Assembly: GCA_963662405.2 (NCBI GenBank)
Contig: CAXXKT010000003.1
Span: forward strand, 448,001 to 512,000
Length of the DNA: 64,000 bases
Origin: Syntrophales bacterium
GTDB lineage: Bacteria > Desulfobacterota > Syntrophia > Syntrophales > UBA2210
Reading direction: 5' to 3'
Shown one piece after another: positions 26,737-47,982 of this stretch (within the stretch, counting starts at the first letter, position 1; each line of letters begins with the position of its first letter). The position numbers and the translations under genes are program-made. The notes under the pieces are model-generated. The model was not told the origin of the DNA. It ran no database searches and was given only the letters and a program-made list of their open reading frames with translations.

Positions 26737-27567
26737 TCATGCCGCAGCCTGTCCCTGTGGTAGTGATTCAAAATAAACCATAGCCGGTGTCTTTCTGTCA
26801 AAAGTATTGTGCCACCGTTTCTCGTTGTAGAACTGAAAATAGTCGGTAAGCCCCTTCTTCAACTCTTTCATTGAACCGTATGCCTTCAGATAGATATCTT
26901 CGTACTTGACGCTCTTCCAGAGCCGTTCGATGAAGACATTGTCCATCCATCGCCCCTGACCGTCCATGCTGATAGAGATATCATGAGAGCGAAGGACATC
27001 GATGAATGCCTGTGAGGTAAACTGACTGCCCTGATCGGTATTGAAGATAGCCGGGCGCCCATACGTGGTGAGTGCTTCTTCAAGCGCATCCACACAAAAC
27101 GCACTGTCCAACGTATTCGACAACCGCCAGGAGAGGACCATCCGACTCGCCCAGTCCATAACGGCTACCAGATAACAGAACCCTCGTTCCATGGGAATAT
27201 ACGTGATATCGGCAGACCATACGTGGTTGGGACGGATGATATCAAGTCCCCGTAACAGATACGGATATATCGGGTGCTGGGGATGCTTTATCGATAATCT
27301 CGGCTTGATGTACAACGCCTCGATCCCCATGCGACGCATCAACCGACGTACCTTATCACGTCCGATATCATACCCTCTCTGCCACAGCTCATTGCGAATC
27401 TTCCGACTCCCATAGAAGGGATACTGAAGATGAATCTCATCAATCTGACGCATCAGCTCCAGATCCTTCGCGCTGACCGGAACCGGAGAGTAATAAACAC
27501 TCGATCGGGACAGCTCCAAGAGTTCGCATTGACGGGTTATGGGCACACTCTTTTCTCTCTTGATCAT
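26737..27567 (-). CDS. IS3 transposase OrfB (DDE/rve)
   Basis: WSADITYI, NTDQGSQF, DNVFIERLWKSVKYE. Confidence 0.95.
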   Translation of the reverse strand: MIKREKSVPITRQCELLELSRSSVYYSPVPVSAKDLELMRQIDEIHLQYPFYGSRKIRNELWQRGYDIGRDKVRRLMRRMGIEALYIKPRLSIKHPQHPIYPYLLRGLDIIRPNHVWSADITYIPMERGFCYLVAVMDWASRMVLSWRLSNTLDSAFCVDALEEALTTYGRPAIFNTDQGSQFTSQAFIDVLRSHDISISMDGQGRWMDNVFIERLWKSVKYEDIYLKAYGSMKELKKGLTDYFQFYNEKRWHNTFDRKTPAMVYFESLPQGQAAA

Positions 27568-38841: not shown

Positions 38842-38961
38842 TAAATGGGTATATGTTCCGATACCAAAAACGCAAGTCCCTGTTAACCCCCTCGGGAATT
38901 TCCCGTTCGTAAGGGCGTGGAGATTCACTCTGTATCCGTCTTTAGCAGAAAGGTTGGAGCC

Positions 38962-41900
38962 ATGAACTTCGCCAGCAGAACCATTCGTTGTTTCATATTC
39001 TTTGTGGTTTTTTGTGCGTGTGGGGTGTGCTTCGCGGAAGAGGCGCTCCCCTATTCCTATTACCTCCCTTACTTCAGATCGGATTCGAGTTATGCCACGG
39101 CACTGGCACTCAGAAATACGGCGGAAGGAGAGGGAGCACACGTATCATCGGTGGTGTATGGCCGGGACGGAACCCCCCTGGTCACCGATGAGCGCGATAT
39201 CCCGTCCCGTGGCCAGACATCCTTTCTCATCGGTGGAGCTCTCGATTATGAGGGGGGGTGGATCGCGGTCTCTTCCGATCAGCCGCTCACGGGCTTGTGT
39301 TTTGTGGCAAGTCGGGGTGAGGACACGCATATGTACGATATCACCCTTATAGATGAACTTTCCACGGAGGTTATCGTTCCACATATCGCACAGAGCGACA
39401 ACTGGGACTCCACGGTTCTTGTCTGCAACCCCCATGATTCCCCAACCGATATCACCCTCACCTTGGTTAACCAGGAAGGGAACGTAATTGAATCCGTCAC
39501 CTACCACAACATCCCTGCAATGGGGAGCAGGCGCTATGAAATAGCGGTACTCGGCCAGGGATCGGGAAGCATTGAGATTTCAGCAGACAATGCTGTTGCG
39601 GCATTTGCACTCTACGACAATATCAAACTTCCGGAGAGATACTCCATCGCGGGGATCAGTGCGGTCGATTCGCGAAACCAGGAGGATTATACCTACTACA
39701 TTCCCTATTTTATTTCCGGGCCGGATTTGATCTCCGGAATCGGGTATGTGACAGGGGTGGCATTGAGAAACGGGAGCGCTGAGGACAGCGCGAACGTCTC
39801 CGTCGTGGTGCGGAATGAAGACGGCACCGTGTGCGCAAGCGAAGCCAGGAGTATTCCCCCTCGGGGTCAGACTTCTTTCCTCGTGGGAACCGAGTTAAAT
39901 CAGGATGGCGGGTGGATAGAGGTTTCGTCCGATCAGCCCCTGACGGGGCTCTGTTTCGTGGCAAGCGCCACGCCTGATACACACATGTTCGATATAACTT
40001 TGATACGGGATCTCTACAAGTTTCTGTCCGTGCCCCATGTGGCCCAAGGCGCCGCCTGGGATTCCAAGGTTCTCATCTGCAACCCTTCCGACCAGCAGAT
40101 CGATGTCACGCTCACACTCGTCGATACGGAAGGGAATGTGATTGAATCCACCACGTACCAGATCTCTGCGAGGGGGAGCAGGCAGTTTGAGACAGCGGCA
40201 CTCGGTCAGGGATCGGGGAGCATTGAGATCTCGGCAAGCAGTGGAGTCGCGGCATTTGCGCTCTACGACAATATCAAGCTGCGGGGGAAATACTCCATCG
40301 CGGGGATAAGCGCCCTCATGCCCCCCGTCACCGCAAATGCCCAGGCCTTTGCGAATGAAAAGGTTGCCGAGGGGACGCCCCTCCTCGATTCGGGTGATTA
40401 CAGCGCCGCGAAGGCGAAATTCGCCGAGGCACTGGATGCCGATCCTGACAACCCGGGGGCCAACGCTGGCTATTCCCTTTCCAGTATGGGTGAAAACGAG
40501 GAGACCTATGAAAACATGTGGACGGGCGCCATCGGCTCGATAGAGGGAAATGATCTCACATCGGGACAGATGTTTATGGAGCAGATATACGAATTATTAG
40601 GGGGATTGCCTTTTATACAATTCAGCTCGGAGAGCACGGAACATCGCCCCCTGTCTCTGGTGCTGCCGCAGCCCCAGGGAGCCAATGAGATAGACATTGA
40701 CCTGGATGTCCCCAATTCGCTCAAGGAAATAGTCCTGAGAATTACCCATGGCGTTCCTGTCTATGACAGCAGTTATTTCGGGGCCATGGCAGCCTTCAAG
40801 GATGAATTCAGGACGTACGTCTCCATGGCGCGGCTGATCCTTCCCCTGATCCGCAAGGTCGAGGCGGTCCCCGGTTTCACGCTCGAGTTGCCGGCCTCTA
40901 TCTACAAGGAAATCTTCGGCTTTGATATGGACGGGGACGGTATCGATGATCTCAACACCCCGGCGGACTCGGTCATTATCGACCAGGGAGATTTTTATAT
41001 TATGGATGCCATGCTCAGCATGGTGATCGGTCTGTCGCAATTCTTCGAGGCATACGATTTTACGGGATCTTCATTCGAGGTGGCAGGCGATACGAATGCG
41101 GACGGCTACATAGACCCGGATGAATATCTGCCACCGGAACCATACTACACCCTGCTGGAGGGTGGCGCAGAACGAATGGCGGAAGCCAGGGTATTTCTGA
41201 ATACGGCATTTGCCAAGCTCGAACGCGGCATCGATATTACACTGGCGGAACCAGCGGACGATCACGAGCTCCTCCCGGTGAATGCGGATGCCGATTTGAG
41301 GGCCTTTCTGAACTCTCTCAAAGACAGCGCCGATTATATGGACCTGTCTGATCTGAAGGCACTCATGTCAGGGCCCTATCTTTTTGATTTTTCAAAAGGT
41401 CCCTTTTCCCTTGCGGGTCAATCCATCTCCTTGAACTTTGCGGCCTTTTTTGATTCGCCGTTGGATTTACGCGATTATCTCCCCTCCATACGGGTGAGCG
41501 ACCAGAGCATGCACTATCGCGGTGATGATACCCTTGGGGGGATGATACCCGGCGGCGATCTCGACGATGTGCTCAATTACGCGCTCGGCATAGCGACCCT
41601 CACATCCATTCCCATCATCACCTCCCTTTCCTCAACAGAGGTCGCGTTGGGAGGCACGCTGGATATATACGGGGAAGGATTCGGCGAGCTTCAGGGCGAC
41701 AGTACGGTGACCATCGGCAACAGGGCCGTGCCTACGGCCGATATCCTCCTGTGGTCGGAAGACCACGTACAGATACGGATAGCTCCGGACACCGTTCCGG
41801 GGAGGCTGCGTATCGAGGTGGATGATATGCTCACGAACTCGGTCCGGATCAGCATCGAGGGCATCATCGCAGACCATTTTGATGAGGTTCTGAGCGCGGA

Positions 41901-42570
41901 GATGGCAGGCGATCCCCCTACCACCATCGACTCAGGACTCTATGTCTATGATATATACGATGCACCGGCTGTCTCTTGGAGCCCCACTGCCTCTCATTGG
42001 CTCATTTCGGCTGACTATCCGGGATATATGCTTCAAACATCCGACATCTGGTATCTAAACCCCGACTTTAGTTGGTGGGATTCTCCCGACCCTGAGGTGG
42101 ATTATTTCCAGGGGAGCAACCTTGTCATGCAGGGCCAGACATTCTCTGACTTCACGTTTACGGCGGGCTTTGCAATAAAATATCAGGATGAAACATGGAC
42201 GCTTAGGGGCTCTGACAACGACGGCATCGGGATCGTCTTCCGCTATCAGGACGAAGACAATTACTACCGTTTGATGAGCGTCTTCGAAGAAGGCCCGTTC
42301 ACGCGTCTCGAAAAATTCGTGGGAGGCGAGATGACCGTGCTGGCCCTGAGCACCGATCCTGCGGACGTGTACGTGGCCGACGAATACGGCGTCGTTCCTG
42401 ATGATATCAATGTCTTCACGGTCGAGGTTTCGGGAACCAATATCAAGGCATACATCAACGACAGACTGGTCTTTGATGTGAATGACGGGACGTTCTCTTC
42501 AGGGAGGGTGGGCATTGCCACCTACGCCATGTGCTGGACATGGCTGGATTATATCACCGTGGAGCACTAA
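38962..42570 (+). CDS. Large acidic secreted multidomain protein (duplicated beta-rich domain, TPR-like helix pair, DxDxDG loops, IPT/TIG, lectin-like C-terminus)
   Basis: Signal peptide; two ~205-aa repeats; DMDGDG and DTNADG; PIITSLS..GEGFG..VTIG; DNDGIGIVFRYQDEDNYY. Confidence 0.8.
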   Translation: MNFASRTIRCFIFFVVFCACGVCFAEEALPYSYYLPYFRSDSSYATALALRNTAEGEGAHVSSVVYGRDGTPLVTDERDIPSRGQTSFLIGGALDYEGGWIAVSSDQPLTGLCFVASRGEDTHMYDITLIDELSTEVIVPHIAQSDNWDSTVLVCNPHDSPTDITLTLVNQEGNVIESVTYHNIPAMGSRRYEIAVLGQGSGSIEISADNAVAAFALYDNIKLPERYSIAGISAVDSRNQEDYTYYIPYFISGPDLISGIGYVTGVALRNGSAEDSANVSVVVRNEDGTVCASEARSIPPRGQTSFLVGTELNQDGGWIEVSSDQPLTGLCFVASATPDTHMFDITLIRDLYKFLSVPHVAQGAAWDSKVLICNPSDQQIDVTLTLVDTEGNVIESTTYQISARGSRQFETAALGQGSGSIEISASSGVAAFALYDNIKLRGKYSIAGISALMPPVTANAQAFANEKVAEGTPLLDSGDYSAAKAKFAEALDADPDNPGANAGYSLSSMGENEETYENMWTGAIGSIEGNDLTSGQMFMEQIYELLGGLPFIQFSSESTEHRPLSLVLPQPQGANEIDIDLDVPNSLKEIVLRITHGVPVYDSSYFGAMAAFKDEFRTYVSMARLILPLIRKVEAVPGFTLELPASIYKEIFGFDMDGDGIDDLNTPADSVIIDQGDFYIMDAMLSMVIGLSQFFEAYDFTGSSFEVAGDTNADGYIDPDEYLPPEPYYTLLEGGAERMAEARVFLNTAFAKLERGIDITLAEPADDHELLPVNADADLRAFLNSLKDSADYMDLSDLKALMSGPYLFDFSKGPFSLAGQSISLNFAAFFDSPLDLRDYLPSIRVSDQSMHYRGDDTLGGMIPGGDLDDVLNYALGIATLTSIPIITSLSSTEVALGGTLDIYGEGFGELQGDSTVTIGNRAVPTADILLWSEDHVQIRIAPDTVPGRLRIEVDDMLTNSVRISIEGIIADHFDEVLSAEMAGDPPTTIDSGLYVYDIYDAPAVSWSPTASHWLISADYPGYMLQTSDIWYLNPDFSWWDSPDPEVDYFQGSNLVMQGQTFSDFTFTAGFAIKYQDETWTLRGSDNDGIGIVFRYQDEDNYYRLMSVFEEGPFTRLEKFVGGEMTVLALSTDPADVYVADEYGVVPDDINVFTVEVSGTNIKAYINDRLVFDVNDGTFSSGRVGIATYAMCWTWLDYITVEH

Positions 42571-42585
42571 TGTGAAATCAGGCCT

Positions 42586-42631
42586 GTAGCGGGGGCGGGC
42601 GCATCGCTTCGTAGATCGGTGCCCGCCCCTG
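42586..42631 (+). terminator. GC-rich hairpin between convergent genes (REP-like or terminator)
   Basis: GTAG followed by GGGGCGGGCGC...GTGCCCGCCCC; no strong T-tract. Confidence 0.5.
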
Positions 42632-42805
42632 AAACGCTTCCTGTGCCCTGTCGGTGTCGCAGGGGTCGAAAGGCTTGGTGACGTCTTGAGGCGGGTGTCT
42701 TTTGCTCCGTCTTGTTTTCAATCAACAGCCTCATTATCTCCGTCACGGAACGAAACCCGACATTCAATTATGCCACGTCCAGAGGGTTGGCAGCGGGGGA
42801 GCACG

Positions 42806-42826
42806 TCAGGAAATAGGTGTGTCCCC
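42806..42826. repeat. Island direct repeat, copy A
   Basis: TCAGGAAATAGGTGTGTCCCC. Confidence 0.6.
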
Positions 42827-42849
42827 CGATCTTCAGCTATCACGTCCGC

Positions 42850-43278
42850 TCACTTCTTGGACGAAGAGACAATAAGGTGTGTCGTTGTTACACGCACGAG
42901 CACATTATTATTGTCATCTCTCACGACGGTTTCAACGACTTTCATTGTTCGTCCGGAATGCACAACCTGAGCTTCCGCCGTTGCGGTACCGGTATCTGTG
43001 TTGCTCACCAGATTTGCGCTCAGTTGTACCGTGAACGGAAAGGGCTCATCTTCTTTCCTGCAGGCTGCCGTGGCGGTTATGTCGGCGAGCGAAACCAAGG
43101 CTCCTGCGGCAAATTTCCTCGTAAATTGACTTGTATTAGGGCAAAAGGGCATTTTCATGACCACCCGGTTTTCTTCTATCTCAACCGGTGTAATGCCGAA
43201 GGCAATAAAGATGTCCCCACCTTTCTCTTCGAAGGGTCTCCGAAATTCAGCAACAGCTTTCTCGTCAAGTTTTGGCAT
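42850..43278 (-). CDS. PaaI/hotdog-fold thioesterase
   Basis: AGALVSLAD, TVQLSANLV, VVHSGRTMKV. Confidence 0.8.
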   Translation of the reverse strand: MPKLDEKAVAEFRRPFEEKGGDIFIAFGITPVEIEENRVVMKMPFCPNTSQFTRKFAAGALVSLADITATAACRKEDEPFPFTVQLSANLVSNTDTGTATAEAQVVHSGRTMKVVETVVRDDNNNVLVRVTTTHLIVSSSKK

Positions 43279-44566
43279 GGTGAGTTTCCTTTTCCAGATT
43301 GCTCAAAAAGTGCTCGAGCAGCGATTCGCGTACGTGATCCATCACCACGATCTTCCACCAGCGCGGCCTGCCGTCGTGCGTGTCGGGGACGAGGAGGTAC
43401 TTCTCCGCGAGGGCCGGTGTGATATGGGTGCTGCGAATGGCGACCTGATTCATTGCCGGGTGGCGGTAATACTCGACAGCGAGGTCGCTGAGGCGCGTGC
43501 AGAGGCGGTCGGTCCGCTCGCGCAGGTGGCGGCACCGCGCGATGAGCCCCTCCGAGCCCGCGTCGCGGAGCAGCATCCAGACGGCAACGGCGTTGGCCCC
43601 CGATCGACTGCCGCAGATCGTATAGTCCTTGCCGAGCACGTAGCTCGCCTCGTCGGTGCAGACCTCGTCGATAAGACCCTTGCGGCAGAGAAAAATGCCC
43701 GTGCCGTACGGCGCCTTGAGCATCTTATGGGCGTCCATGGTGATGGACGCGACGTGGGGACTGCGGAAATCGAGGGAATGGTCGTCGACCGCAAAGGGAT
43801 AGATGAATCCTCCGTAGGCGCCGTCCACATGGAGACGGAAGGCGAGGGCTCTCTCCCGGAGGGCCGTGACGAGCGGCCCGGGGTCGTCGATGGAGCTGAA
43901 CATGGTTGTGCCCATGTTGACCACGCCGATGACACAGCGGACACCGGCGGTCACGGCGGCATCGAGCGTCGCGGCGATGGCGGCGGGGTGCATCTGCCTG
44001 GTGGTATCATCGACGGGGACGGGGCACGGACGCAGGTCGAGCAGGTTGGCGGCCTTCCACACCGAGTAATGCGTGTCGGCGGAGAAGACGATGCCGATCT
44101 CTCCGGCGCGGGCCTGGTGCGTGCGGCGGAAGAGACTGCGCAGGATCCAGCACGCCTCCAGATTGGATTCGGTGCCGCCCGGTGCGATGTAGCCGTCATA
44201 ACCGTCCCTGGGCGCGCGCATGATCTCTTCGGCGCAGAGGGCGATCGCCTCCCTTTCCAGTTCCTGCGTTCCCGGGAACCCGCATTCCGACACCTCGACA
44301 GTGTGGCAGCCGATGTGATTCGGGTTCTCGATAATGGCGCGTAGATACGGTTCGTCGTCGAGTACCGGCGAGGACCACGGGATGTGGGTGAGGACAGAGC
44401 AGCTGTCGGCGTAGTAATCCTCGGCATCGAGATGCGTGCCGGGGAAACCGAGCACGGCATCGGTATGGTAGTTGATGTTGCGGTCAATGGCCTGCGCGAA
44501 ACGCCGTTTGATCTCGTCACGTGAGTATTGTTCCCAGTGCATGATTTCCGCTCTTTCTTCGATCAA
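43265..44566 (-). CDS. Group II PLP-dependent decarboxylase (MfnA/HDC-like)
   Basis: GGTESN, HYSV.K, GTT...SIDD, LHVDGAYGG, DAHK (PLP lysine), GSRSG; start could be 44542. Confidence 0.88.
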   Translation of the reverse strand: MIEERAEIMHWEQYSRDEIKRRFAQAIDRNINYHTDAVLGFPGTHLDAEDYYADSCSVLTHIPWSSPVLDDEPYLRAIIENPNHIGCHTVEVSECGFPGTQELEREAIALCAEEIMRAPRDGYDGYIAPGGTESNLEACWILRSLFRRTHQARAGEIGIVFSADTHYSVWKAANLLDLRPCPVPVDDTTRQMHPAAIAATLDAAVTAGVRCVIGVVNMGTTMFSSIDDPGPLVTALRERALAFRLHVDGAYGGFIYPFAVDDHSLDFRSPHVASITMDAHKMLKAPYGTGIFLCRKGLIDEVCTDEASYVLGKDYTICGSRSGANAVAVWMLLRDAGSEGLIARCRHLRERTDRLCTRLSDLAVEYYRHPAMNQVAIRSTHITPALAEKYLLVPDTHDGRPRWWKIVVMDHVRESLLEHFLSNLEKETHHAKT

Positions 44567-44609
44567 TTCCTAAGAAACGCACTTCCCGCCTTTATCGGTG
44601 ACGAACCCT

Positions 44610-44636
44610 TAATCGGCACATCTTTGAGGTTCTTTA
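44610..44636 (-). promoter_or_regulatory. Putative sigma28 (FliA) promoter
   Basis: Minus strand TAAAGAAC-N11-GCCGATTA directly upstream of the decarboxylase. Confidence 0.6.
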
Positions 44637-44657
44637 TGGTTTTTACCGGCGGGCGTG

Positions 44658-45083
44658 TTATACGCCGTACTTCATGAGAATCTCAATATGACCCGTGTGC
44701 TTGTCAATCTGTTCTTGTATGATTCTGAATCCGCGCTTTCTGTAAAAATCAATACTCTTCGGATTTTCTTTATATACCGTGAGTTCCAGACTGTTTCTCA
44801 AGGATTTTGCCTTATCCATTAATCTACGGCCGATACCTCTGCCGTGAAACTCCGGGGAGACGAACATCGCCGCCAGCGTGTCATTGTGGAGAGAGAAAAA
44901 GCCCTTGATAATTTCGTTTTCTTCAAACACATATGTGTTGGAAGCGGGAATATAGGTATCCCGCATTACATCCATTCTGGATTCCCAGAATTCCGGAGAA
45001 ACAAAGCTATGCGCGTCTATCGATGCTTTCACCCAGATATCCAGGACATCATTGATTTCTTCCGTTTTCAATTTTCGTATCAT
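44658..45083 (-). CDS. GNAT N-acetyltransferase (YiaC/YjaB-like)
   Basis: AHSFV..FW, MFVSPEFHGRGIG, LTVYKEN..SIDFY; AT-rich. Confidence 0.85.
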   Translation of the reverse strand: MIRKLKTEEINDVLDIWVKASIDAHSFVSPEFWESRMDVMRDTYIPASNTYVFEENEIIKGFFSLHNDTLAAMFVSPEFHGRGIGRRLMDKAKSLRNSLELTVYKENPKSIDFYRKRGFRIIQEQIDKHTGHIEILMKYGV

Positions 45084-45132
45084 ATTGATCACTACCGGCT
45101 CATGCCACGATATGCTTCGTAGATTTCAGTTA

Positions 45133-45645
45133 TTACGTGCTTTTGTCGATAAACAGTCTCATCATCTCCGGCGTGGAACGAAACCCGATCTTCTCGTAGA
45201 TCGGTTTACCCGCCGCGCTCGCGGTGAGAATCATCCTGTTGACACCGTGGACACGGCAGTGCTGTATCGCGGCATCGATGATGCGCTGCGCGCATTTCCT
45301 GTTGCGATGCGTCTTCTCCGTGTACATGCCGTGCAGGTACGCGACTTTTGGTGACAGATCGGAAAGATTCGGAACGAAACTGACAAAGGTCACCCCTCCG
45401 CTCGCGACGATCTTCCCGTCATCCTCGATCACCCAGGCCGTGCAGATTCCGCTCCTTAATTCCGTTTCGAGCTTCTGGGTATAGGCCTTCTCGATATCAC
45501 CCGCTAGTTGGGGGTCAAGGTGCTCACCCTTCTGCTCACATATTTCTTCGAACATCAATCTGTAATGTTCGGCCATAGCAGGGATGTCTTCAATCGATGC
45601 CTCACGAAGAGGCATTTTAGATTTTTTCAATCTATCAGTTGCCAT
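45133..45645 (-). CDS. GNAT N-acetyltransferase
   Basis: MYTEKTHRNRKCA, LTASAAGKPIYEKIGF. Confidence 0.85.
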   Translation of the reverse strand: MATDRLKKSKMPLREASIEDIPAMAEHYRLMFEEICEQKGEHLDPQLAGDIEKAYTQKLETELRSGICTAWVIEDDGKIVASGGVTFVSFVPNLSDLSPKVAYLHGMYTEKTHRNRKCAQRIIDAAIQHCRVHGVNRMILTASAAGKPIYEKIGFRSTPEMMRLFIDKST

Positions 45646-45705
45646 GAGTAGTCCTTATTACAGTCAGCGCTGCATTCAGCTTCTTGTCAGCGAGAGAGAA
45701 TAGGG

Positions 45706-45728
45706 CAAGAAATAGGTATGCTGTCCCC
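45706..45728. repeat. Island direct repeat, copy B
   Basis: CAAGAAATAGGTATGCTGTCCCC. Confidence 0.75.
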
Positions 45729-45743
45729 GAATTTAAGTCGTTT

Positions 45744-46073
45744 TTACTGATTGAGCTTCAAACCGGCAAGCCGATTCAGACTGATTCCCGACTCGGCGGC
45801 CTGGATCGCAAGGCTTCGATGAACATCCGGGGGGACCCGGACCATAAACTTCCCGCTGTATTTCCTGCAGGCAATCGGTTCCGGGATATCTTCACCGTGC
45901 TCGCGCATATCCTGTACGGTATCCGTAACCACCTTCCGGATTCCCCGCAGGGCGGCCTCCGGAGTCCGGGCCAGCCAGCTCAAACTCGGGAATTCGGTAC
46001 ACAGCCCCACATACTCGTTGTCCTCTTCAGACCATGTTACCCGGTAGGTGTATTTATCGTTTTTCAAGGTCAT
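45744..46073 (-). CDS. hicB: HicB family antitoxin
   Basis: YTYRVTWSEED.EYVGLC.EFPSLSW; YSGKFMVRVPP..HR.LAIQAAE.GISLN. Confidence 0.9.
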   Translation of the reverse strand: MTLKNDKYTYRVTWSEEDNEYVGLCTEFPSLSWLARTPEAALRGIRKVVTDTVQDMREHGEDIPEPIACRKYSGKFMVRVPPDVHRSLAIQAAESGISLNRLAGLKLNQ

Positions 46074-46317
46074 GATATACCTCCAGTCTCTCAACGGCCA
46101 GCAGCACCTGTTTCACCTGGTATGCCTTGGCCTTCCCCTTATAATTCTGGATATTGATCCTCGGGTCCCCGTGCCACGGGGTTTTATATATCCGGTGGCT
46201 TCCACTGCTTTGGCGAGGTTTACCGAAGAAATGATCACAGACCCTGCATAAATCAGCAAATCGGACATTTCCTGGATTCCTCCCCATTTGTGCAAGGATG
46301 TCATCCGTCTTTATCAT
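46054..46317 (-). CDS. hicA: HicA-like toxin
   Basis: NVRF.DL..VC..FFG.PRQSSGSHRIYKTPW..GKAKAYQVKQ; overlaps hicB. Confidence 0.85.
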   Translation of the reverse strand: MIKTDDILAQMGRNPGNVRFADLCRVCDHFFGKPRQSSGSHRIYKTPWHGDPRINIQNYKGKAKAYQVKQVLLAVERLEVYHDLEKR

Positions 46318-46319
46318 GG

Positions 46320-46351
46320 GACATTGGTATCACTATTGATACCAATGTCAA
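46320..46351 (-). promoter_or_regulatory. hicAB promoter with perfect 13-bp inverted-repeat operator
   Basis: GACATTGGTATCA-ctat-TGATACCAATGTC overlapping a minus-strand TTGACA and ending 2 nt before the ATG. Confidence 0.8.
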
Positions 46352-46401
46352 GGGTTATTTGTTGAGGAGGGATTTGGGGGGAGATGGGGGAAAATAGTCA
46401 T

Positions 46402-46425
46402 TCAGGAAATAGGTATGGTGTCCCC
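46402..46425. repeat. Island direct repeat, copy C
   Basis: TCAGGAAATAGGTATGGTGTCCCC. Confidence 0.75.
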
Positions 46426-46463
46426 AAATGAGACCAGCTACCGAACGATATATTTCTGCCGGG

Positions 46464-46523
46464 CACTAACGGATTTTTCACAAGCGCCGGTAGTTTGGCG
46501 CCTCGTGCAAAAATGGGCTATAC
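46464..46523 (-). mobile_element. Integron attC-like recombination site (60 bp)
   Basis: GTATAGC-N5-TTTGCACG-stem/loop-TGTGAAA-N5-GTTAGTG; unpaired G at position 4 of L''; gene stop codon inside R''. Confidence 0.7.
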
Positions 46524-47003
46524 GTTCCTTTTCATCAACCCATACGGAAAGATACAAGGCGTTTTAGCTTTGTATTGAAAGTATTCGGAACCAAATACTG
46601 ATTCCAAATATATTTCTTCTTTTTTTACCAATTTACATAATACGAGGTACATGAATATCGGTGTTGTAAACACAATCCAACTGTTTATGAAAAGAACGAT
46701 GCCAGGGACAATAAAAACCACCCATGATGCATAGAGCGGATGGCGGCAACATCTGAAAATTCCATCAGTGACAAGATTATCGGCATTGTATGCACGTGTC
46801 ACTGTTTTTACCGAAATTATAAAGAAGGGGACTCCAACGACGAGCAAAGTAACCCCCAGAAAGGACTTAACCCAGGAGGGGATGGAGTCTATCTGAAGAA
46901 CCGGCTGAAAATAGCGGTTTGTTATCAGCATAATCGCTCCGTAGCCGATTGATAAGGAGGCAAAAATGGGCCCTATGCCCCACCTGCTCATTTTTTCTTT
47001 CAT
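46518..47003 (-). CDS. Isoprenylcysteine carboxylmethyltransferase/PEMT family membrane protein
   Basis: LVTDGIFRCCRHPLYA, EEIYLESVFGSEYFQYK; visibly AT-rich. Confidence 0.88.
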   Translation of the reverse strand: MKEKMSRWGIGPIFASLSIGYGAIMLITNRYFQPVLQIDSIPSWVKSFLGVTLLVVGVPFFIISVKTVTRAYNADNLVTDGIFRCCRHPLYASWVVFIVPGIVLFINSWIVFTTPIFMYLVLCKLVKKEEIYLESVFGSEYFQYKAKTPCIFPYGLMKRNV

Positions 47004-47207
47004 GGATATTCTCTGATTTTCGTATGACATGAAATAGACAGTTTCCTGCATAGAAACAAAACACAGTTACTCGGACAGCGTAAGTCGTCCTCTATCAATC
47101 TTATGGCTCTCGAATGGCGGTGCTGTTGTCTCAACAGAAATATCCCCCGGAAAGCAGTAAAAACCATACACCCTGAAAATTCTTTGTCAAGGGTTTTATA
47201 TGATTAA

Positions 47208-47235
47208 AGAAACACCCCGGTAACAGGGTGTTTCT
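47208..47235 (-). terminator. Rho-independent terminator after the ECF ATPase gene
   Basis: AGAAACACCC..GGGTGTTTCT stem followed by a T-rich run. Confidence 0.65.
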
Positions 47236-47241
47236 GTTTTC

Positions 47242-47982
47242 TTACGAGAATTCTTCTTCGTGGCGGTGGGAGTATTCGCCGCCCACGTGAACGTGTGTGT
47301 GGGTGTGGGGGACGATGTGGTCGGCCTTCCGCAGGCGCCCGTCCGCGAAGGCGTAGAAGGTGTCCGCGATCCGTGACATGAAGTCCAGTTCGTGCGAGGT
47401 GACGACGAGGGTCAGGTCGAGCCCTGACAGGATCTCCGTGAGACGGTCCTTCGTTTCCTGATCGAGCCCCGCCGTGGGTTCGTCGAGGATCAGGACCTCC
47501 GGGTCCATGGCCATGACGCTCGCCAGGGCCACCAGCTTTTTCTCGCCGTGGGACAGCTTGTGGCTGATTCGGTCCTCGAAGTCGAGAATCCCCAGGGTGT
47601 CGAGGGTCCGGTGGACGATCTCCCCGGCCTCGTCCGCCGTCCTGCCCAGGTTGAGGGGTCCGAAGGCCACGTCCTCCCTGACGGTGGGGCAGAAGAGCTG
47701 GTCCTCGGCGTTCTGGAAGAGGAACCCGATCCGCCGGCGGACGTCGAAAAAGTCTTCTTCCGTTCGGACCGTGTGGCCGAAGATGGTGATGCCGCCGGAC
47801 TGCGGCCGGGCGAGTCCCATAATCAGGTGGAAGAGGGTGGTCTTCCCCGAGCCGTTGGGGCCGATGATACCGATCCGCTCACCCCGTTTCACCGCGAGGT
47901 CCACCCCGTTCAGGACGGCGGGCCTTCCCGGATAGGCGTAGGTGGCACCGGTTATATCGATGATTGTTTCATCCGTCGGCAT
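47242..47982 (-). CDS. cbiO: ECF transporter ATPase (NikO/CbiO)
   Basis: GPNGSGKTT, DVAFGPLN, LSHGEKK, ILDEPT; His-rich tail. Confidence 0.9.
   Translation of the reverse strand: MPTDETIIDITGATYAYPGRPAVLNGVDLAVKRGERIGIIGPNGSGKTTLFHLIMGLARPQSGGITIFGHTVRTEEDFFDVRRRIGFLFQNAEDQLFCPTVREDVAFGPLNLGRTADEAGEIVHRTLDTLGILDFEDRISHKLSHGEKKLVALASVMAMDPEVLILDEPTAGLDQETKDRLTEILSGLDLTLVVTSHELDFMSRIADTFYAFADGRLRKADHIVPHTHTHVHVGGEYSHRHEEEFS

Follow-up and report, generated by a model that had tools for sequence, protein, structure and literature searches.

The closest described counterparts of the repeat considered here are the TIRtrons, in which GGGGWSAS repeats flank a Y1 transposase gene, TIRYT, and whose repeats fall into families of single, dimeric and grouped copies (Di Nocera et al. 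2013, PMC3733652). TIRYT has been equated with TnpA-Y1 subclass 2.1, which is defined by protein motifs and was present in roughly 15% of sampled species (Quentin et al. 2018, PMC6006769), and corresponds to group 1 of the RAYTs, the most insertion sequence (IS)-like of these proteins (Bertels et al. 2017, PMC5581495). We analyzed an island of seven genes in a 64,000-nucleotide stretch of the genome of a Syntrophales bacterium (assembly GCA_963662405.2, contig CAXXKT010000003.1, positions 448,001 to 512,000), hereafter the window; coordinates without a prefix count from its first base. Three direct copies of a short repeat lie between the genes of this island. We consider it near certain that the repeat is a TIRtron terminal repeat, and likely that the island is a decayed integron remnant devoid of an integrase. 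With less assurance, we favor the reading that a TIRYT acting from elsewhere cut and rejoined DNA at these ends. TIRtron/TIRYT elements share with ours GGGGWSAS repeats that flank a Y1 gene with NH-x-H and Y-x-E-x-NP motifs, the occurrence of solo, dimeric and grouped repeats, and some duplicated copies. The TIRtron/TIRYT literature consulted describes no cut site, insertion signature, cargo, or integron or RHS connection, and a literature search made mostly outside subscription journals met the name TIRYT in two works and found no link of it to integrons or RHS arrays. Seen here are fixed ends past GGGG, the absence of target duplication, outward stutters, a lineage bias towards attC arrays and toxin-immunity modules headed by an end.

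Element ends that flank passenger DNA or stand at its head, and that give rise to tandem arrays, are familiar from the translocatable units of IS26, which employs a DDE enzyme, and from the one-ended transposition of IS91/ISCR. Integron mobilization units are integrons flanked by inverted miniature inverted-repeat transposable elements, with a 5-bp duplication (review PMC3184786); they resemble the window in that element ends bracket passenger DNA, but the inverted elements and the duplication set them apart. In REPtrons, an HUH enzyme, TnpA-REP, cleaves single-stranded DNA at a dinucleotide near the repeat and transfers strands, and repeats spread without genes, as here (PMC8266576). The window repeat differs in having neither a hairpin nor a GTAG guide, and in the congener G003 the transposase gene moves with its ends. 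Subclass 2.1 TnpA-REP genes lie beside the lanthipeptide procA genes, and the same subclass has been proposed to diversify this neighboring family (bioRxiv 10.1101/2020.03.09.984088); the authors of that preprint found no inverted repeats and softened their causal claim, whereas here the module borders map to the repeat.

Identity and behavior of the window repeat

A sequence-only reading of the window had singled out a motif occurring three times in one orientation, each time between genes and starting at 42806, 45706 and 46402, and had taken it for the end of a mobile unit whose enzyme, perhaps of HUH/Y1 type, is encoded elsewhere. The pattern AAATAGGT-N(0-5)-TGTCCCC matches the window exactly three times, always on the + strand and in intergenic sequence (42811-42826, 45710-45728 and 46407-46425), against a chance mean of 0.01; none of 100 shuffles reached three copies. 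The copies thus hold up, the proposed starts lying 4-5 bases upstream of the matched cores. The reverse complements, GGGGACAC for copies A and C and GGGGACAG for copy B, all fit GGGGWSAS, and all three copies resemble a left end. Copy A (42806-42831) is a solo left-end-like repeat with a 3-base deletion and the outer tail CGATC, and copy B (45703-45733) is a solo TIRtron left end with the outer tail GAATT. Copy C, which with an inner segment of about 60 bp spans 46344-46430, is probably a two-ended mini-element with one end decayed. Partial extra copies beside B and C do exist, as had been noted, and are probably not the scars of repeated insertion for which they were taken, because true stutter repeats sit on the opposite, outer side of such ends. 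The partial copy beside B corresponds to the inner portion of a left TIRtron end, retained in the related metagenome contig L206, and that beside C looks like the decayed second end.

The identification rests on intact elements in relatives. The exact window motif forms the left end of a 223-aa TIRYT in G003 (locus L069) and stands at both ends of a TIRYT in the genome G292 (L303/L338); a second contig in sequencing run X2 bears a G292-type element. With a less strict pattern, related ends were found on either side of a Y1 gene of this genome, T1 (C1:2080286-2080951), as outward-facing inverted repeats, and internally deleted TIRtron copies of about 135 bp also came to light. The enzymes carry the subclass 2.1 motifs NHIH (NH-x-H), W-Q and YVELNP or YIEMNP (Y-x-x-x-NP), compared with Table 1 of PMC6006769, and score above the cut-off of PF01797 (Y1_Tnp) and just below that of NF047646 (77 and 72 vs 80 bits). 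TIRYT homologues occur in 23 of the 38 genomes of the family, and among 30 family loci this end type lies beside most intact TIRYT genes, its middle bases varying with the enzyme lineage. A weight matrix built from other genomes scores 16 TIRtron ends in this genome and one in the reversed genome, missing copy A owing to its deletion. The strict pattern has one further match in the 3.8-Mb genome; of 151 genomes from the order 18 contain it, where the reversed control gave six single matches. Across 78 distant loci, described below, the motif is mostly solitary. The proposal of a mobile-unit end served by a Y1 enzyme encoded elsewhere was upheld by the intact TIRYT genes of G003 and G292 and by the sister enzyme T1 here; the refutation named with it, that the motif prove to be the end of a catalogued insertion sequence, applies in part, since the motif ends a described element, TIRtron/TIRYT (PMC3733652).

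Against the preferred reading, in which a TIRYT acted at the window ends, this genome holds no intact TIRYT with the exact window end. The T1 end has AAGG in its middle, and T1 itself shares 65% identity with the enzyme of G003; of the cognate enzyme type only a 5' remnant lacking an end survives here (C1:1955411-1955576). Two more intact TIRYT genes of this genome, L007 (C3:145713-146372) and L009 (C2:219735-220577), have end variants of their own, GGGCGCTGTCCCT and AAGACCTGACCCC. That the repeat is instead a tyrosine-recombinase site (attC, attI or dif-like) for IntI or a Xer-type enzyme is very improbable. In its favor, the island is overlapped by an integron remnant, and 24 matches to tyrosine recombinases occur in the genome; but the motif is not palindromic, receives no score from the attC model, forms the inverted termini of Y1 genes in numerous genomes, and is already contradicted as such a site by the intact TIRYT genes that it ends in G003 and G292. 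Neither a Y1 nor a tyrosine recombinase gene was found within the window. A recombinase beside the TIRYT gene T3 on C2 was considered as an IntI and rejected (88 bits vs a cut-off of 265).

Beyond TGTCCCC, five bases are conserved as N-GATT in 87 copies (G in 64, A in 70, T in 61 and T in 70), and the inner flank is unconserved. Outward TCCC stutters fall within 40 bases of 34 of these 87 copies, against a shuffle mean of 14 and a maximum of 23. Long outward arrays of repeated ends or stubs at L107:6001-6432, L083 and L101 have the look of reiterated joining or copying at a terminus. Full TIRtrons measure about 740 bp and have fixed ends 5-6 bases past TGTCCCC; the T1-type element, of 741 bp, has the fixed ends GGAACT and GGAATT. 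G003 contains six full T1-type copies that differ by 1-11 of 741 bases and retain intact open reading frames, and the element has therefore moved recently; no target duplication of more than 1 base was found at these six copies. TnpA-REP has been shown in vitro to cut at CT or CA in single-stranded DNA and to carry out strand transfer (PMC8266576). By analogy, TIRYT would nick single-stranded DNA just outside GGGG, at fixed ends CT, TT or TA, and would then join the freed end to new DNA.

Integron-like features and genes of the island

The capture system of the island had been called non-integron, which is wrong for part of it: besides an ICMT cassette, the island has an attI-like site and an attC site, and its GNAT1 and decarboxylase genes have relatives in attC arrays. 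The attI-like site, the attC site and a GNAT 3' remnant beside copy A were absent from the sequence-only reading. All lie on the − strand, and the island starts with a promoter, the attI-like site, ICMT and attC in that order. The conserved promoter-like element TTGACA-16-TATGGT (47135-47210) is directed into the array and has homologues upstream of variable genes in relatives, among them unrelated accessory and defence-type genes in at least six. The attI-like site (47022-47075) has a degenerate crossover box (GTCAT) and is followed by the first cassette, a gene for an ICMT-family methyltransferase (46518-47003, with the frame open to 47051). The attC site (46464-46523) overlaps the ICMT stop codon and is the only strong match in the window (28.1 bits, E 2e-4, filters off) to R1, a covariance model which, being built from 17 attC sites of which 14 are from this genome, favors this lineage. 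As expected of a cassette array, ICMT lies between the attI-like site and attC with its stop in the R'' box, whose AAC is changed to AGC. In both sites, candidate substrates of IntI, core boxes are changed. The cassette following attC breaks off after 38 bases, where copy C has its outer edge.

The attI-like site matches the heads of cassette arrays at three other loci, here and in relatives, and aligns with C1:30440-30490, at the 3' end of a broken intI (C1:30602-31643). Some results count against the integron part of our reading. The motif of the attI-like site stands at the 3' end of intI in two of 18 integrase loci, and the short attI pattern is not above control genome-wide (14 vs 16 matches); because of this the designation attI-like relies on the longer alignment and on position. 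A single attC in the window passes the model, and the definition of attC-site clusters that have no integron-integrase (CALINs) calls for two (PMC4889954). The window resembles a CALIN in its attC, its cassette-type genes, the location of IntI elsewhere and the presence of IS-type elements in the array, and differs from one, besides the attC count, in keeping an attI-like site and in having TIRtron ends rather than attC at most module borders. An excess of stability was not found for the plain fold of the attC candidate (z about -1.5). A simple hand-made attC finder missed the true site and returned many chance matches, and was replaced by R1.

IntI matches in this genome are confined to C1, with none near the island; an intact IntI heads a long co-oriented array at C1:2211885. 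In the arrays C1:2211885-2230000 (L199) and C1:17000-31643 (L198), intI is co-oriented and several attC sites are followed by a repeated gene-less cassette of about 109 bp. The L198 array also holds four TIRtron ends and a duplicated attC-plus-end segment. At L014:2482-2621, a long attC-like hairpin lies 20 bases outside the right end of T1; it folds well and has no R1 score.

The seven genes are all on the − strand, in keeping with the co-orientation first described, and the shift in base composition between them is likewise evident, per-gene GC content ranging from 41% to 63%. Pfam supports the calls of a thioesterase, a decarboxylase, two GNATs, HicB and ICMT, and the gene called hicA has no family match. 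From the inner side of copy A, the features are a GNAT gene 3' remnant (42708-42765), 78% identical to the end of GNAT2 at 45136-45193 and partly covered by a contig of run X6 (42529-42751); the 4HBT thioesterase (42850-43278), which is absent from L206, where a NUDIX gene has its position; the group II decarboxylase dependent on pyridoxal phosphate (43265-44542), whose 88% identical relatives adjoin attC matches in L207 and L208; a putative degenerate attC-like hairpin region (44567-44657), without a match to R1 and with a shorter hairpin in its stead in L206 and run X6; GNAT1 (44658-45092), with a 67% identical DNA homologue between two attC matches in the genome G014; and GNAT2 (45133-45645), which accompanies copy B in L206. 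Beyond copy B lie the HicB antitoxin gene (45744-46073) and a gene for a likely HicA-type toxin of 87 aa (46054-46317), named from its position and size and without a match in Pfam, NCBIfam, PHROGs or PDB sequences. A 30-bp palindrome in the hicA promoter (46320-46349) is presumably the operator. An Rfam scan of 42000-47500 gave four matches, all far under the gathering scores.

Junctions at the repeat in the island and in contigs

That neighbors change at the repeat, as had been proposed, was observed at the outer edge of copy B and on both sides of copy C. The metagenome contig L206 has the GNAT2-GNAT1-decarboxylase block in common with the island at 88-93% DNA identity and has other neighbors on both sides; a decayed copy of B stands at the same place with a different gene outside it, and homology ends at the outer edge of B. 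Copy C moves together with its inner segment of about 60 bp, being found with other neighbors in runs X4 and X7 (one contig each, from other organisms, at depths of 7.6 and 3.2). The C-type end in X4 faces the 3' end of hicB, and the copy-C unit in X7 lies 7 bases outside another end. A joint of 46423 to 45738 in X4 was considered as a hicAB circle and rejected, as the other 141 bases of the contig do not align to hicA; neither the X4 nor the X7 contig is an excised hicAB circle. A further X4 joint, 46360 to 47142, may be a true adjacency or a shared promoter box and was excluded from the evidence. The decarboxylase of L207, located within an attC array, is enclosed by a pair of outward-facing ends that belong to a different repeat of similar style, and no transposase was seen at that pair.

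We propose, for the origin of the island, that IntI would first have loaded ICMT into the array and that TIRtron ends would then have landed among the cassettes. Joining at their outer edges would have eliminated the remaining cassettes and brought in two blocks, hicAB and GNAT-GNAT-decarboxylase, and decay of the transposase genes and right ends would have left three left-end stubs in direct orientation. This history, in which a TIRYT encoded elsewhere cut and rejoined DNA at the window ends and so joined gene blocks, is the one we prefer and judge somewhat probable. A rather unlikely alternative is that IntI and ordinary recombination built the island and that solo ends of about 26 bp, or mini-elements, were later dropped into the gaps in the manner of REP sequences, moving no gene. 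Variable islands tolerate insertions, and the single, dimeric and grouped families of PMC3733652 agree with such a spread; but the homology shared with L206 extends as far as the decayed copy B and not beyond its outer edge, the outer edge of copy C truncates the cassette after attC at 38 bases, a truncated GNAT adjoins copy A, and orphan RHS cores in relatives begin within 8 bases of an end.

Contigs of runs X1 and X2, probably the source of this genome, show no joints at the repeats, contigs being prone to drop rare variants. Cutting and rejoining by TIRYT also has evidence against it. No clean empty site was found, as no relative with both flanks came to light. No biochemistry or assigned activity for subclass 2.1 was found in the literature compared, and the results from G003, G047 and distant loci that bear on the point are given below. 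The right-flank cbiO has no match at E 1e-60 in seven congeners, and the left-flank protein is matched in one of 338 other genomes, in another context. Neither an excised circle nor a clean pair of empty and filled alleles was found among the contigs. No such repeat adjoins the hicAB homologues of the genomes G011 and G007; a homologue at L019:1100-2150 (G007) lies between copies of a different direct repeat of about 60 bp.

Relatives, distant loci and the case for capture

The geometry of the window recurs, with elements intact or as stubs, in the RHS toxin-immunity arrays of G292 and G003. In G292 (L337:6000-19900), orphan modules come after an RHS/YD gene, with TIRtrons in direct repetition, intact and broken, between them; two orphan RHS cores, sharing 99% identity with the main gene, begin at distances of 5 and at most 8 bases from a right end. 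Three RHS loci of G003 (its C1:300917-321076, L342-L343; C2:701000-726000, L344-L345; and C2:987900-999100, L070, L204) contain 11 units, in each of which the same left end and about 88 bp precede the beginning of an RHS core. Every unit has its own outer junction with 1-4 stubs, most of them adjacent to where a small putative immunity gene ends; the 15 toxin tips are for the most part unrelated, and four pairs are close. Arrays formed by displacement of RHS C-termini are generally attributed to homologous recombination that uses no fixed site. Recombination by the host between the 1.3-kb repeats can multiply the G003 units, and the arrays use a sibling end (ATAC), not the window end, both of which count against the preferred reading; the distinct junctions at a fixed end suggest separate joining events, and these three loci are the best natural test case for capture mediated by TIRYT. 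The enzyme may thus also stitch in and shuffle neighboring genes, as such ends head rows of toxin-immunity modules in relatives, and the earlier suggestion of non-integron gene capture by the repeat draws its best support from these arrays, not from the island.

Proximity to attC matches differs between lineages. Six of the seven T1-type loci in G003 lie within 4 kb of an attC match (3.2% of the genome) and all seven within 7 kb (4.9%), with thresholds set after looking and two of the seven being neighbors; none of 14 ATAC- or ATGG-type ends in G003 is closer than 12 kb. Two of eight end-bearing loci in this genome lie within 4 kb of an attC match (2.7% of the genome), and one of these is the window.

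For distant loci, one genome was taken per species; at least 118 stretches were listed, and the 80 with full flanks, minus two duplicates, gave 78 loci with 81 sites. Among the matches listed, a subclass 2.1 match is present in 23 of the 80 full-flank stretches (three being the same contig), and 16 of the 81 exact-motif sites abut a TIRYT gene or fragment. By our own gene caller, 61 of 65 solo sites are intergenic, and no orientation bias was found at solo sites, the outer gene pointing toward the site in 20 cases and away in 17. The lack of bias fits plain intergenic insertion, and together with the intergenic positions it favors ends that were dropped into gaps. The same is true of cargo-free two-ended copies, seen in the genomes G047, G134 and G292; those of G047, of about 95 bp, are common between housekeeping-type genes (many such mini-elements were noted at L067, L068 and L071-L073). 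An attC match was found near the exact motif at one of the 78 loci, with a model that favors the present lineage. An all-against-all comparison of inner and outer flanks at 221 sites detected no cargo common to different genomes, the matches being element sequence and one within-genome RHS duplication.

These loci also bear on a more specialized system, in which the repeat would be the equivalent of attC and TIRYT would excise gene-plus-repeat circles and re-insert them at existing repeats. The window and the three G003 RHS loci, with their arrays in direct orientation and a single end for each module, would suit it, as would the X7 and X4 arrangements and a G292 locus (L338:6409-9330) in which a left end, TIRYT, a right end and an Na/H antiporter-TrkA gene are followed by a solo left end direct with the first. 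We regard it as improbable, for neighbors show no polarity across the 78 loci, the gene for the enzyme is itself mobile as an element of several copies, the X4 contig fails to extend into hicA and so is no excised circle, and the X1 and X2 contigs, within the limit noted above, hold no joint at the repeats. For the window, a dedicated cassette system is unproven, there being neither an excised circle nor, across the 78 loci, an orientation bias. Cutting and rejoining at the ends, which we prefer, can be generalized, tentatively and against the balance of probability, to TIRYT as a second, HUH-based gene-capture enzyme: it would join an end of about 26 bp to the far side of incoming genes, form modules headed by that end which leave as single-stranded circles, and in this way build and reshuffle toxin-immunity, toxin-antitoxin and cassette arrays, one lineage homing to integron arrays.

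Elsewhere in the window, an IS-type transposase frame at 26737-27567, which we take to belong to family IS3, is also found after the intact intI on C1. A 1217-aa, probably secreted protein (38917-42570) has TIG, TPR and DUF5719-like matches and one homologue among 338 other genomes of the order.

The observation is real and is explained by known parts; what is new is the comparative evidence in relatives, which makes the question of subclass 2.1 function testable. The comparisons predict a cut position, insertion without target duplication, outward stutter as the trace left behind, and natural substrates of two kinds, arrays of integrons and of RHS orphans. If TIRYT joins no passenger DNA at these ends, the window contains nothing more than a common integron in decay and the debris of elements. 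If it does so, at a short, non-palindromic site, it would provide a route for renewing toxin-immunity repertoires and for remodelling integrons without IntI.

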